Part shown: piece by piece, positions 26,240-33,308 of the stretch | How the letters are laid out: every line of letters begins with the position of its first letter | How positions within the stretch are numbered: position 1 is the first letter of the stretch | IMG/VR virus record: IMGVR_UViG_3300010048_000029 | Span: 1-33,508 of that record | Direction: 5' to 3' (one strand) | DNA: 33,508 nucleotides | Origin: a virus | Taxonomy: Duplodnaviria; Caudoviricetes | Notes under the pieces: model-generated | What the model was told of the DNA's origin: nothing | The model's input: only the letters and a program-made list of their open reading frames with translations | The model's database searches: none | Translations under genes and position numbers: made by a program

Positions 26240-27304
26240 CTATGCAGCATCCTCACCGTTCAGGAAGGATGTGACCTCAGTCCAGCGGTCGGACGCTTCC
26301 TTCAGCACCGACTTCTCTTCATCCTCCTTGGCCTCAGCCGCCTGCCACTTGACCGGGTCGCGGAAGGACTCCACTGCCGCCTGGATCAGCGCGGCCAGGG
26401 TGGCCGGGTCCAGGGCGTCTAGCTCCCAGGAGTCGGTGGTGTTGAATCGTCGGATGTAGTCAGGGGTCCGGGCGTCCTTCGGTTTGGCAAAGTTAGGGGG
26501 TGGGTTGTACTGCTGCACCTGGGGCATGTTCAGGGCGATGCGGCTGACAATCAGCGGTGGCACGGCGCGGATGTCGTCAGCGGGGATCATCAGGTGGTCG
26601 TTGATGTGCTGCCAGACCTCTGCCTCGTACATCTCCCACTCGTCGGGGTCATCCTCGTCAATCCACTCCAGGTCATCCTCGCCCGCATGCTCCCGGTACC
26701 AGTCCTTGCCGATGAACAACTCCAGGCGGTCTCGGATGTCCCTGGTCATGTCGATACCGGAGGGGTCATGGTCGCCCAGGTGTAGTACCACCACCCGCTG
26801 GCCGGCGTTCAGGTACTCACGCAGCCGCTGGGCTGCGCCCCAGATCTCTGACTGGCTGGTGTAACCGCGGCAGGAGAAGTAGTCCACGTCGAGGCCGGGG
26901 CAGACTGAGTCCAGAACACCCACTAGGGCGTCCTTCTCGATCCAGACCTCGATCCGCACGGGCTGGTCTGCCCACTTCTCGATGCGGTACTGGCGCGACA
27001 CCGCCTCCACGATCTCGGCGGGGCTGTTCCAATGGGGCAGGCTCCGCAGGTTGCGGGTGCGGTCCACGATGTAGTCCCAGTCCATGTAGCCAGCCAGCCT
27101 GGCATCGCTGACGATCCGACCCAGGCGGTCGTAGCTCTCCTGGTTGTTGGGGATCAGGCCACGGGCCACGAACTGGTAGTACAACTGGCGCAAGGTCAGG
27201 TCGAATCCCTGGGCCTGGTACTGGGCACAGATGGCGTTGGCTTCCCGGATGACTTGCAGTGACTCACCTCGGAACTTCTTCTTGACGTAGGTGATGCGGC
27301 TCAT
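26240..27304 (-). CDS. Topoisomerase VI-A/Spo11-like winged-helix plus TOPRIM domain protein
   Basis: LTLRQLYYQFV, EVWIEKDAL, SCRGYTS, LHLGDHDPSGIDM, WELDAL; start reset to ATG 27304 (ATGA overlap). Confidence 0.82.
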   Translation of the reverse strand: MSRITYVKKKFRGESLQVIREANAICAQYQAQGFDLTLRQLYYQFVARGLIPNNQESYDRLGRIVSDARLAGYMDWDYIVDRTRNLRSLPHWNSPAEIVEAVSRQYRIEKWADQPVRIEVWIEKDALVGVLDSVCPGLDVDYFSCRGYTSQSEIWGAAQRLREYLNAGQRVVVLHLGDHDPSGIDMTRDIRDRLELFIGKDWYREHAGEDDLEWIDEDDPDEWEMYEAEVWQHINDHLMIPADDIRAVPPLIVSRIALNMPQVQQYNPPPNFAKPKDARTPDYIRRFNTTDSWELDALDPATLAALIQAAVESFRDPVKWQAAEAKEDEEKSVLKEASDRWTEVTSFLNGEDAA

Positions 27305-27570
27305 CGGGCCGGCTCTCCATCTATGGTCACGGTCACGAGGATGGTGACCTTCTGAGGTGGGTGGTCGTACTTGTCCATGGAGCGGATCATGCGGCTGCCG
27401 ATCCACGCCTTGACGTTGAGGAAGAGACCGTCCATAGCCTCCGCACTTAAGGTTCGGTCAGGACCGTCGCGCTTGACGGCCTCTGGCATGCGCTCAGCCT
27501 CAAAGGCCATGAGCGGGCCGTCCATCAGGCACAGTTGGTCTAGCTCGTAGTTCATGTTGGGCTGGGTCAT
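27301..27570 (-). CDS. Hypothetical protein
   Basis: 89 aa, coupled on both sides. Confidence 0.65.
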   Translation of the reverse strand: MTQPNMNYELDQLCLMDGPLMAFEAERMPEAVKRDGPDRTLSAEAMDGLFLNVKAWIGSRMIRSMDKYDHPPQKVTILVTVTIDGEPAR

Positions 27571-30413: not shown

Positions 30414-30671
30414 CTAGTCGGGGATGACATTCTCCAGCATGCCCAGGCTCGCCTCCAGGTGGAGGCGTGCTTCGCGTAGCTGGTCAAGCTGGTACTCGCG
30501 GTCGCTGCCGGCCTGGCGGTAGCGGGTGAGGGCCTGGCCGCAGGTCATGAGGGCCAGGTCGACCTCCGACACGATCTCGCCCTCTCGCATCGAGGCTGAC
30601 CGGTCCCTGGCCTTCTTCCAGATGCCGGCGTCGCGCCGGTCCCGTCGCCAGAGCTTAAGAGCCGACGCCAC
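30414..30671 (-). CDS. Hypothetical helical protein
   Basis: 85 aa, overlaps the end of the upstream gene. Confidence 0.6.
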   Translation of the reverse strand: MASALKLWRRDRRDAGIWKKARDRSASMREGEIVSEVDLALMTCGQALTRYRQAGSDREYQLDQLREARLHLEASLGMLENVIPD

Positions 30672-31455
30672 TCTTGCCCACCCTCACCAGCACCCTCCTA
30701 GTCGGCGGTTTCGGTAGCTCGGTGATGGTGGCAAGCTGCGGCTTCTTCCGCGCCTTGGCGCGCTCCCTGGCTCGCAGACGCTTGGCTCGCTCTCGCTCCA
30801 CGAGCCTCTGCTTGGCCTTGTCAGCCCTCCTGGCCTCCGGTGACCCAGGAGGCAGGCCGTCCTTCCTAGGACGCCCACGAGGCCGCTCAGGAGGGGTACG
30901 AACGGTCCCAGGCGGCGGTATGGAAAACGCTGTCTTGGTGAAGGCGTGCCGCGGACCGAACTTCGTCCTAGACCCTGGCGTGTTGAAGTCCAGCGTCGCC
31001 TTGGTCTCTCCTGGTGCCGGTAGGACGTACTGAGCGTTCACCCCTCGCTGCACCACGATCTTGAAGGTGCTGTCGCCGGCCAGGGCCAGAGCGTCCTCGA
31101 CGTGGACCGGTAGGCCGTTCGTCGGCCCCATGTTGAAGATCGAGTTGGCCCATACCTCGACATCGGCCTGGGTCTTGATCTCCTTGTTCAGGACGCTCTT
31201 GACCCGGATCCCCAGTCGCTCTAGCTCGGGCAGCGTCTGATCGAACGCCTCCAGTAGCTCCACGGCGTTGCGGCGCAGCTTGTCGACCTTGGCCGGCTCA
31301 GCCATGGTCTCCATCCCCGGCCAGATGGTGGCCGTGTTCTTGAACCAAGTCCAGGAGTCACCGTCGAAGACAGGGATGTAGCCCATGCGCCCCAGCTTGA
31401 TCACACCGTTGAAGCCGGTGATTTTCTGCCAAGCCTCAGTTCCGTTCAACTCCAC
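30655..31455 (-). CDS. Hypothetical protein with AT-hook and basic C-terminal tail
   Basis: RPRGRPRK AT-hook followed by an Arg/Lys-rich helix; start probably GTG 31455 or TTG 31449. Confidence 0.7.
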   Translation of the reverse strand: MELNGTEAWQKITGFNGVIKLGRMGYIPVFDGDSWTWFKNTATIWPGMETMAEPAKVDKLRRNAVELLEAFDQTLPELERLGIRVKSVLNKEIKTQADVEVWANSIFNMGPTNGLPVHVEDALALAGDSTFKIVVQRGVNAQYVLPAPGETKATLDFNTPGSRTKFGPRHAFTKTAFSIPPPGTVRTPPERPRGRPRKDGLPPGSPEARRADKAKQRLVERERAKRLRARERAKARKKPQLATITELPKPPTRRVLVRVGKSGVGS

Positions 31456-31807
31456 TCTCCAGGTTGTGCGCCCTAGCCACGGTCTGGGCCAAGTCCTTCT
31501 CCAGGGGCGAGTCACTCAGAATACGCGGAGCCTTGCCTCGGAACCAGACGCCCAGCGCGAAAGCGCGAGGTTTTTTGCGAACCATGATACCGAGACCTCG
31601 CCTCCAGGGCGGGAGGATCTCGCGGGTCACGCTGACTGAGACCGGCCACTGGTGCGGGTTGGCCTCCCCGTGCCAGCGATACAGCACCCACCAGGAAGAG
31701 GTGTTGTCAGGAACTGAGGAAGCGTCGGGCAGGCTGGGTAGTACCCAGTTGTTTTCGTCCTCTGGATCCTCGTATGCTGGGGGGTCCGGGTGGATATTTG
31801 TTGTCAT
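31436..31807 (-). CDS. Hypothetical phage protein
   Basis: 123 aa, EILPPWRRGLG...FALGVW; GAGG upstream; start uncertain because it overlaps the upstream small ORF. Confidence 0.62.
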   Translation of the reverse strand: MTTNIHPDPPAYEDPEDENNWVLPSLPDASSVPDNTSSWWVLYRWHGEANPHQWPVSVSVTREILPPWRRGLGIMVRKKPRAFALGVWFRGKAPRILSDSPLEKDLAQTVARAHNLESGVERN

Positions 31808-31895
31808 TTTCCTCTAGGGCTGCATCGATCTCAGCCAGTATTTGGTCAATCCGAGATGGCAGCTTTGACGGCTCTTTTTTCGTCTTCTCGCCCAT
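31707..31895 (-). CDS. Pup-like peptide lacking the C-terminal GGQ/GGE
   Basis: SKLPSRIDQILAEIDAALEEN versus M. tuberculosis Pup EKLTEETDDLLDEIDDVLEEN (recalled sequence); ATG 2 nt after the KTSC gene stop. Confidence 0.55.
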   Translation of the reverse strand: MGEKTKKEPSKLPSRIDQILAEIDAALEENDNKYPPGPPSIRGSRGRKQLGTTQPARRFLSS

Positions 31896-31897
31896 GG

Positions 31898-32380
31898 CTA
31901 CTCAATGCTCCCCCAGCCTCCGCGCCCATACGGGTACGCATTCAACACGGCGTTGATATAGCGCCCAGGACTCTCTACTCGCTTGAAGCGGTTCCAGATC
32001 CTGGGCGGTACATTGTTGTAATGCCAGGGCGTCCCGTCCCGGAAGATGACCTCCAGGGTCTGCTGTCGGCGGGAATATCTGGCCTGTAGCGTTCTGGGTC
32101 TTGGTGGGTTAATGGTGCGTGTGGGCCAGTAGTAGTCCCAGGCCGGATCCGGCGAGGGGCCGAACGGGCCTTGAGTGCCGTGTGGCTCCTCATCGGAGAC
32201 CAGGGGGAAGTCACTGGGTCGCACGTACTGCGGGTGCAGCCTGAGCGTGGAGTTGCGGGCGCGCTCCTCCCGCGCCTGGGAGTAGCTCTCGTAGCCGCGC
32301 TCCTTCTCCCGCTCGTTGCGGACGGCGAAGACTGTGATGCCCCTTCGGCGCGCCTCAGCCCGAAGGGACTCGCGGGGCAT
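31898..32380 (-). CDS. KTSC domain protein
   Basis: ARYSRRQQTLEVIFRDGTPWHYNNVPPRIWNRFKRVESPGRYINAVLNAYPY. Confidence 0.85.
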   Translation of the reverse strand: MPRESLRAEARRRGITVFAVRNEREKERGYESYSQAREERARNSTLRLHPQYVRPSDFPLVSDEEPHGTQGPFGPSPDPAWDYYWPTRTINPPRPRTLQARYSRRQQTLEVIFRDGTPWHYNNVPPRIWNRFKRVESPGRYINAVLNAYPYGRGGWGSIE

Positions 32381-33026: not shown

Positions 33027-33041
33027 TAGGCTTGGGGCATG
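33027..33041 (+). promoter_or_regulatory. Putative leaderless promoter TAGGCT-N6-ATG
   Basis: cTAGGCTtggggcATG. Confidence 0.55.
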
Positions 33042-33308
33042 TCGATCCCCTTCTCGACGCAGCAGTTTGAGAAAAAACCCAACCGGAAAATGCCAGCCAC
33101 GACTGTCCGTTTAGACAAGATCGACGCCACCCAGTTGAAGCTCGATCACAAGAAGGTCATGAGCATCGCGGAGCGGGGGGCTGATGACGGCACCGACCCC
33201 CTGGTGGCGAAGCTGAATGGCCGCTACAAGGTCTTGGACGGCCACCACCGGGTAGGCGGGGCCATCGAGCGGGGTGACACCAAGATCCGGGTCAGGCAGG
33301 TCAAGTGA
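33039..33308 (+). CDS. Stand-alone ParB/Srx N-terminal-like domain protein
   Basis: IDATQ...PLVAKLNGRYKVLDGHHRVGGAIERGDTKIRV. Confidence 0.8.
   Translation: MSIPFSTQQFEKKPNRKMPATTVRLDKIDATQLKLDHKKVMSIAERGADDGTDPLVAKLNGRYKVLDGHHRVGGAIERGDTKIRVRQVK

Follow-up and report, generated by a model that had tools for sequence, protein, structure and literature searches.

A Small Phage Protein with a Probable Copy of the ATPase-Docking Helix of Pup

A 62-aa protein encoded by a contractile-tailed phage contains a short acidic segment that resembles the part of Pup that binds the proteasomal ATPase Mpa/ARC, and both working ends of Pup appear to be missing from it. The segment was most likely acquired, by homology, from the pup gene of a host. 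The reading considered the probable one on balance is that these phages captured the docking helix of host Pup and use it on the Mpa/ARC-proteasome, either as a plug or as an adaptor that works without ligation; its basic tail is encoded across the beginning of the next gene. In its stricter form, in which the protein, being neither ligatable nor threadable, would act as a dead-end competitor for host Mpa/ARC coiled coils, the proposal is given roughly even chances.

The window, that is, the whole stretch of 33,508 nucleotides analysed (33.5 kb, the entire record), is assigned to a contractile-tailed phage because it carries genes for tail sheath, tail tube, tape measure, and baseplate. The completeness of the record is estimated at 29%, and near-complete relatives measure 114-118 kb. 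The region of interest is organized as follows.

31898..32380, minus strand: KTSC-domain gene directly upstream of the 62-aa gene (PF13619, E 1.7e-12)
31707..31895, minus strand: 62-aa gene with a short leader, a Pup-like helix, and a basic tail, in 21/21 complete distinct loci (alignments A4 and A6)
31866..31895, minus strand: residues 1-10, equal to Pup 21-30 by offset (spacing to the D37 equivalent), with no counterpart of Pup 1-20, the pore threader
31806..31865, minus strand: residues 11-30, acidic and amphipathic, matching Pup 31-50 (the Mpa/ARC-binding helix) and presumed helical from that match
31710..31805, minus strand: residues 31-62, a tail rich in Arg, Gly, and Pro where Pup has 51-64, overlapping the next gene and lacking GG(E/Q)
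31436..31807, minus strand: 123-aa gene that overlaps in the +1 frame, with an acidic N-terminus followed by a beta-rich domain and with its own start codon (74 clusters)
30655..31515, minus strand: DUF6424-matching gene downstream in the same gene run, with mechanical ORF limits (PF19988, E 2.3e-12)

The small ORF, which an earlier note had described from the letters alone, runs from 31895 to 31707 on the minus strand and comprises 62 codons, as had been claimed. Since the stop codon of the KTSC gene sits 2 nt before its ATG, the two genes are likely to be translationally coupled. Neighbour-based searches returned 53 loci; after an unrelated weak match (L043) was dropped, these came down to 22 distinct region sequences, and as one of them (L034) is cut by its contig end, 21 complete distinct loci remained, the record's own included, and selection and codon statistics were computed on the 18 distinct loci found first. 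The earlier note had suggested looking for homologs beside KTSC genes in related phages, and they were indeed found there: the ORF occupies the same position in all 21 complete loci, and a KTSC-type motif lies upstream of it in 16/18. Codons of the helix (Pup-equivalent positions 37-50) show a pN of 0.26 and a pS of 0.80 across the 18 loci, and the two other frames of this region are interrupted by stops in 16/18 and 17/18 of them. Judged by this distribution and codon pattern, the 62-aa ORF is a real gene whose helix is under purifying selection. Ten members of the family have already been called as proteins in public assemblies. In addition, three other sequencing runs yielded contigs that cross the overlap junction and for which no indel is listed from 31736 to 31895; the overlap is therefore not the product of faulty assembly. 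The earlier note cautioned that the codons are AT-rich; GC is 49% in codons 1-30 compared with about 60-65% in most 1-kb bins of the record.

The N-terminus of the protein is not conserved across the family, in which the usual motif is of the Lys-Lys-Cys type. The proposed echo of the first residues of Pup at this end is not supported, as the unconserved N-terminus aligns with Pup residue 21 and not with residue 1. In 21/26 members, the record's own protein being among those without it, a Cys stands directly ahead of the Pup-like segment; such a residue could serve dimer formation or redox control. A search of the ESM Atlas with the 62-aa protein gave no usable match.

With regard to the helix itself, residues 11-30 share 11 of 20 positions, without gaps, with M. 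tuberculosis Pup 31-50, a count that was repeated against the letters of 3m91_B and agrees with the figure first given by eye. Taken alone, the record's protein reaches 17.9 bits (E 0.0059) against the Pfam Pup model PF05639, whose cut-off is 27 bits, and 14.8 bits against NCBIfam TIGR03687, whose cut-off is 41.45. The best Pfam Pup score seen in the family is 23.8 bits, and no member seen exceeds a curated cut-off. Scoring with the Pfam model, which had been proposed earlier as a check, gave matches below the cut-off in 14/18 members and in 5/7 more distant ones. TIGR03687 matches 13/26 members. Apart from the 62-aa ORF, nothing in the 33.5-kb record matches Pup.

Profiles built only from the phage sequences lead back to Pup. 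When a first-half profile of 18 phage sequences was searched against 177,635 PDB sequences, the top six matches were Pup chains (E 4.6e-6 to 0.021), the next, unrelated match followed at E 0.59, and eight sequences were returned in all at E up to 10. Against five bacterial genomes, picked because they hold pup, the same profile gave one match each, located by its coordinates within pup in 5/5. Among 1.84 billion representative proteins, 15 matches were obtained, comprising ten small family members, one Pup-repeat protein, and four long repetitive proteins, with no ordinary single-copy Pup at E 0.001; among 8,000 longer candidates, the sole match was a Pup. In an ungapped PSSM built from 24 phage helices, the true Pup segment scores 27.8 bits, a value reached by none of 100,000 full shuffles and, where the hydrophobic pattern is preserved, by 37 of 100,000; one unrelated repeat scores 21.9 bits.

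Position by position, Pup residues D37, L40, I43, D44, L47, E49, and N50 are kept at 79-100% in the phage family, compared with 60% for E42, 27% for D41, and 36% for E48. The bacterial comparison set consisted of the 66 of 80 loci that could be parsed (14 were dropped), which gave 40 distinct helices chosen by motifs that fix several columns; for this reason, the agreement in per-position conservation between phage and bacterial helices (Spearman 0.73) is partly circular. Identity of family members to the nearest of the 40 bacterial helices ranges from 8 to 13 of 20. The net charge of helix positions 37-50 is -4.4 in the phage copies versus -7.0 in bacterial Pup, and this lower acidity, together with the loss of D41 and E48, may mean weaker binding. 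Overall, the likeness to Pup appears to exceed chance, as the record contains a single Pup match and the family profile is specific for Pup; it is weak for the single protein and specific for the family profile.

An improbable alternative is convergence, in which a short acidic amphipathic helix of the IDEAL type would have arisen independently and would bind another partner, such as the +1 protein, the KTSC protein, or a part of the virion. For the record's own protein, the IDEAL model (PF08858) does score better than Pup, with 18.3 bits and E 0.0019 versus E 0.0059, although it stays under its cut-off of 22, as does the best score seen in the family (21.4 bits). Its match places residues 15-31 on profile positions 10-26 of 37, or about half of the model. 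The occurrence of unrelated repeats within 6 bits of Pup in the PSSM and the binding of the gene to a fixed three-gene run also fit convergence. However, Pup is the more frequent match in the family (IDEAL matches 9/18 members), and the seven more distant members include none matched by IDEAL. The scarcity of pattern-kept shuffles that attain the Pup score, the exclusive recovery of pup from the five bacterial genomes, and the position-wise conservation that follows Pup's, with the circularity stated above, point in the same direction. An origin of the helix in a host pup gene is preferred.

The earlier note had stated that the conjugation tail is absent, and this is confirmed: the Pfam match stops at profile position 57/69 and the NCBIfam match at 20/33, and a C-terminal GG(E/Q), or any end in E or Q, occurs in 0/26 family members. 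All 66 parsed bacterial Pups carry GG(E/Q), but the parser demanded it. Ligation by PafA uses the last glutamate of Pup, according to PMC3511204. Toward the N-terminus, 25/26 members have 15-27 residues ahead of the D37 equivalent (16 in the record's protein), compared with 33-56 in 62 bacterial Pups; the remaining member, with 36, probably reflects an over-long start call, and all starts are predicted. The 62-aa protein begins at about Pup residue 21, and the N-terminal segment of about 20 residues by which Pup threads into the pore thus seems, on these predicted starts, to be absent as well, an observation that is new here. As described in PMC8755798, Pup 21-51 lies along the Mpa coiled coil as an antiparallel helix, residue 22 is located about at the pore entrance, and the N-terminal part (residues 1 to about 21) threads the pore. 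With both ends absent, this anatomy predicts docking without ligation and without pulling-in, and the missing threader provides a second argument for a decoy.

The genomic setting also differs from that of pup. Instead of a dop/pup/prcBA/pafA-type locus, the neighbours are the KTSC gene, the gene for the uncharacterised +1 protein, and the DUF6424-matching gene. No full-length Pup was found in viral contigs in a narrow search with patterns from P0014. This P0014, a protein of 188 aa, contains three Pup repeats (162.7 bits against Pfam Pup, in three stretches), a hydrophobic, signal-peptide-like start, and Lys-Arg pairs between the repeats, and it looks like a processed repeat protein built of Pup C-terminal halves; it is a single member on a 2.2-kb contig and may be an oddity of assembly or gene calling.

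In the mechanism proposed, the 62-aa protein would dock at the site of Pup on the Mpa/ARC coiled coil and, being neither ligatable nor within reach of the pore loops, would not be pulled off. Its basic tail would be directed away from the pore, toward the place usually taken by the substrate. Unfolding and degradation of pupylated proteins would be slowed, by which phage proteins might be spared or host DNA-repair proteins such as RecA kept at a high level. RecA and other repair proteins of the PafBC regulon are cleared by pupylation after DNA damage, as stated in PMC8223512; the sparing of RecA as a benefit to the phage is offered as a suggestion only. Relative G001 has genes of its own for RecA and DNA polymerase. 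The Pup residues perturbed by Mpa in in-cell NMR include L39, E42, I43, D44, D45, L47, E49, and A51, and also 52-64 (PMC3769308). Among these, E42 (60%), I43, D44, L47, and E49 are kept in the phage family; Pup 52-64 has no counterpart there, and the affinity may therefore be below that of Pup.

A pure decoy does not account for the Cys ahead of the helix in 21/26 members, nor for the tail, which is kept open. The tail lies over a second gene, whose ATG is situated in the +1 frame inside GAA AAT GAC, as previously noted. The +1 gene is real, with relatives that form 74 clusters; an ATG, GTG, or TTG stands 14-21 codons ahead of its first Trp in 18/18 loci. Its ribosome-binding sites are weak-looking. 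The protein has a conserved acidic N-terminus and a beta-rich model (pLDDT 78), for which a structural search gave a best Z of 4.1 and no clear fold; no sequence match was found in the PDB, and a search of the ESM Atlas with it gave one viral cluster (0.75). A third coding frame over the overlap was considered and rejected, as frames -1 and antisense are stopped at varying places.

Within the overlap, the frame of the 62-aa gene has a pN/pS of 1.85, compared with 0.52 for the +1 frame, and 71 of 119 Arg codons in the tail are CGA, for which reasons the tail residues appear mostly to shadow the acidic codons of the +1 gene. The 3' half of the small ORF does overlap the next ORF, as the earlier note cautioned, but it is not mere run-through. 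Changes synonymous in the +1 frame that would stop the tail were observed once versus 24.5 expected, compared with 45 versus 44.6 in a control outside the overlap, although the relatedness of the sequences overstates the strength of this avoidance. The tail also ends at the same TCC TGA in 20/21 loci, being 6 residues shorter in L036, and carries a net charge of +3 to +8. On these two grounds, avoided stops and a shared end, selection probably acts on the tail or on its being translated; the reason may be a role as adaptor, a role in coupling, or a minor frameshift where the tail stops.

The adaptor role, taken as a full alternative to blocking, is unlikely. The helix would dock on Mpa/ARC, and the basic tail would hold a target, an acidic or nucleic-acid-bound protein, for delivery without pupylation. 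The open reading frame, common end, and positive charge of the tail suit this idea, as does its placement, since under the antiparallel binding described in PMC8755798 it would occupy the position of the substrate on Pup. However, the residues of the tail follow the +1 gene in both pN/pS and the CGA excess, its length is not constant (L036), and a target delivered by a protein with no threader would need a loose end of its own.

That PafA or Dop is the main target, with the segment filling the Pup groove and blocking ligation or depupylation, is quite unlikely. Both enzymes bind Pup as two short helices (PMC8223512), the phage profile matches the 28-residue Pup chains of 7oxy and 7oy3 (E 0.021), and the best-kept residues fall within Pup 37-50; nevertheless, 26/26 members lack Pup 51-64, which supplies the second helix and the tail entering the active site, and the phage helix extends N-terminally over Pup 31-36, which fits the long Mpa helix. 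The least probable reading is the frameshifted, Pup-tagged fusion entertained in the earlier note, in which a +1 shift at GAA AAT GAC or at the TCC TGA C stop would join the helix to the downstream protein as a self-tagged substrate or docked effector: a linear Pup-FabD fusion is degraded by Mpa-20S (PMC9599533), the stop context is kept in 20/21 loci, the +1 gene has weak-looking ribosome-binding sites, and the indel-free junction contigs exclude an assembly artefact, but the +1 gene has its own start codon in 18/18 loci, GAA AAT GA is not conserved across loci, fusion to a Pup-like helix occurs in 0/74 relatives of the +1 protein, a shift at the end of the helix would not hold the tail open, against which the selected tail counts, and a fusion without a threader would be a poor substrate.

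Two conserved DNA blocks were also observed in this region, at a fixed distance of 21-22 nt from each other.

31700..31714, minus strand: 15-nt block around the stop of the small gene (TCC TGA C), invariant in 18/18 loci; the stop is used in 20/21
31736..31747, no strand assigned: near-palindromic block of 11-12 nt within the overlap, with the rare codons GTA CTA in 18/18 loci; absent in L070

The near-palindrome forms a short hairpin in 5/7 RNAs folded. Its interpretation as a genome-wide regulator site was rejected, because GTAGTACC occurs only 2-3 times as often as expected under a Markov model and at no fixed distance from starts; the proposal is undercut further by the fact that Tyr-Tyr codons can yield GTAGTACC and by the absence of the block in L070.

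As for the host, an actinobacterium is likely, on evidence drawn from the relatives: two WhiB genes per genome are present in 3/3 relatives, and the terminase of relative G001 shares 50% identity with its counterparts in Streptomyces phages BRock, Alone3, LuckySocke, GiJojo, and pSt2308. Of 14 control genomes, Corynebacterium alone was matched by the WhiB family. The genome contigs searched contained no prophage relative of the +1 gene, and hence prophages indicate no host. In addition to Actinomycetota, pup genes were observed in genomes labelled Myxococcota, Rokubacteria, Methylomirabilota, Nitrospirae, and Spirochaetales (L074-L153), so the host phylum cannot be fixed by Pup alone. PafA/Dop (PF03136) was found in 0/3 relatives and a proteasome subunit (PF00227) in 0/5, from which it follows that any partner would be the host's own. 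A tblastn search with P0001 and P0010, a weak test at 62 aa, detected no cultured carrier of the gene in 50,697 phage records.

Several other genes of these phages were recorded in passing. In relative G001, these are genes for an anti-restriction protein of the ArdC type that contains a zincin domain, for a RecA, and for a protein with SAP and IPT/TIG domains (L050:13108-14103, L052:14373-15710, L049:5208-5885). In the window, the ORF at 26240-27406 on the minus strand (388 aa) matches PHROG 6247, annotated as 'DNA topoisomerase', at E 1.9e-103. The ORF at 33039-33308 on the plus strand (89 aa) is conserved in L001, shows weak matches to PF23719 and PF20188, and contains a DGHHR motif that we take to be reminiscent of ParB-type nucleases.

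That a phage gene family conserves precisely the part of Pup that docks on the ATPase, and lacks both working ends, is an indirect sign that pupylation and the proteasome take part in the conflict between phage and host. No phage Pup mimic was found in the titles and abstract openings of literature on phages, pupylation, and the proteasome, with most subscription literature outside this scope. If the proposal is true, the 62-aa protein would be the first known case of a phage product directed at the Pup-proteasome system, and pupylation would act in phage infection, either as a defence or as a resource. Eukaryotic viruses interfere with ubiquitin, and tag mimicry by a phage would be a parallel to this if binding is true; the protein would then also offer a natural, genetically encoded inhibitor for studies of the Pup-proteasome system. 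The question is testable with a peptide of 30-60 residues in Streptomyces or M. smegmatis.

Compared to known systems, the closest is Pup itself (PF05639, TIGR03687; PDB 3M91/3M9D with the Mpa coiled coil), with which the phage protein shares residues 31-50 as a small acidic amphipathic segment. It differs from Pup in the absence of 51-64 and of GG(E/Q), in a start near Pup 21, in its basic tail, in the non-retention of D41 and E48, in scores under both curated cut-offs, and in being phage-borne, outside the dop-pup-prcBA locus. Since it falls short of Pup in score, C-terminus, threader, and locus alike, it is not a member of the Pup family. The likeness to IDEAL (PF08858) is confined to residues 15-31 (E 0.0019) in 9/18 members, and differs in lying below 22 bits, covering roughly half of a 37-position model, and extending to 0/7 distant members. 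Among phages, Streptomyces phage BRock and its kin (Borockvirus) are similar in the KTSC gene (55% over 56 aa), the terminase (50%, G001), and a genome of 112-116 kb; they differ in that BRock has no match to the profile of the 62-aa gene, and the gene that follows KTSC in BRock (gp159) does not align significantly with the +1 protein by hhalign. Since BRock has a KTSC gene with no such match, the small gene is not required by all related phages. In function, a parallel may be drawn with T4 PinA and T7 gp4.5, which act on Lon, and lambda RexB, which acts on ClpP, described in PMC10286901 as phage inhibitors of host AAA+ proteases, a class defined by function and not by sequence. The 62-aa protein would resemble them as a small phage protein that blunts ATP-dependent host proteolysis, and would differ from them in its target, the Pup-proteasome system, and in its presumed action through a copied degradation tag.
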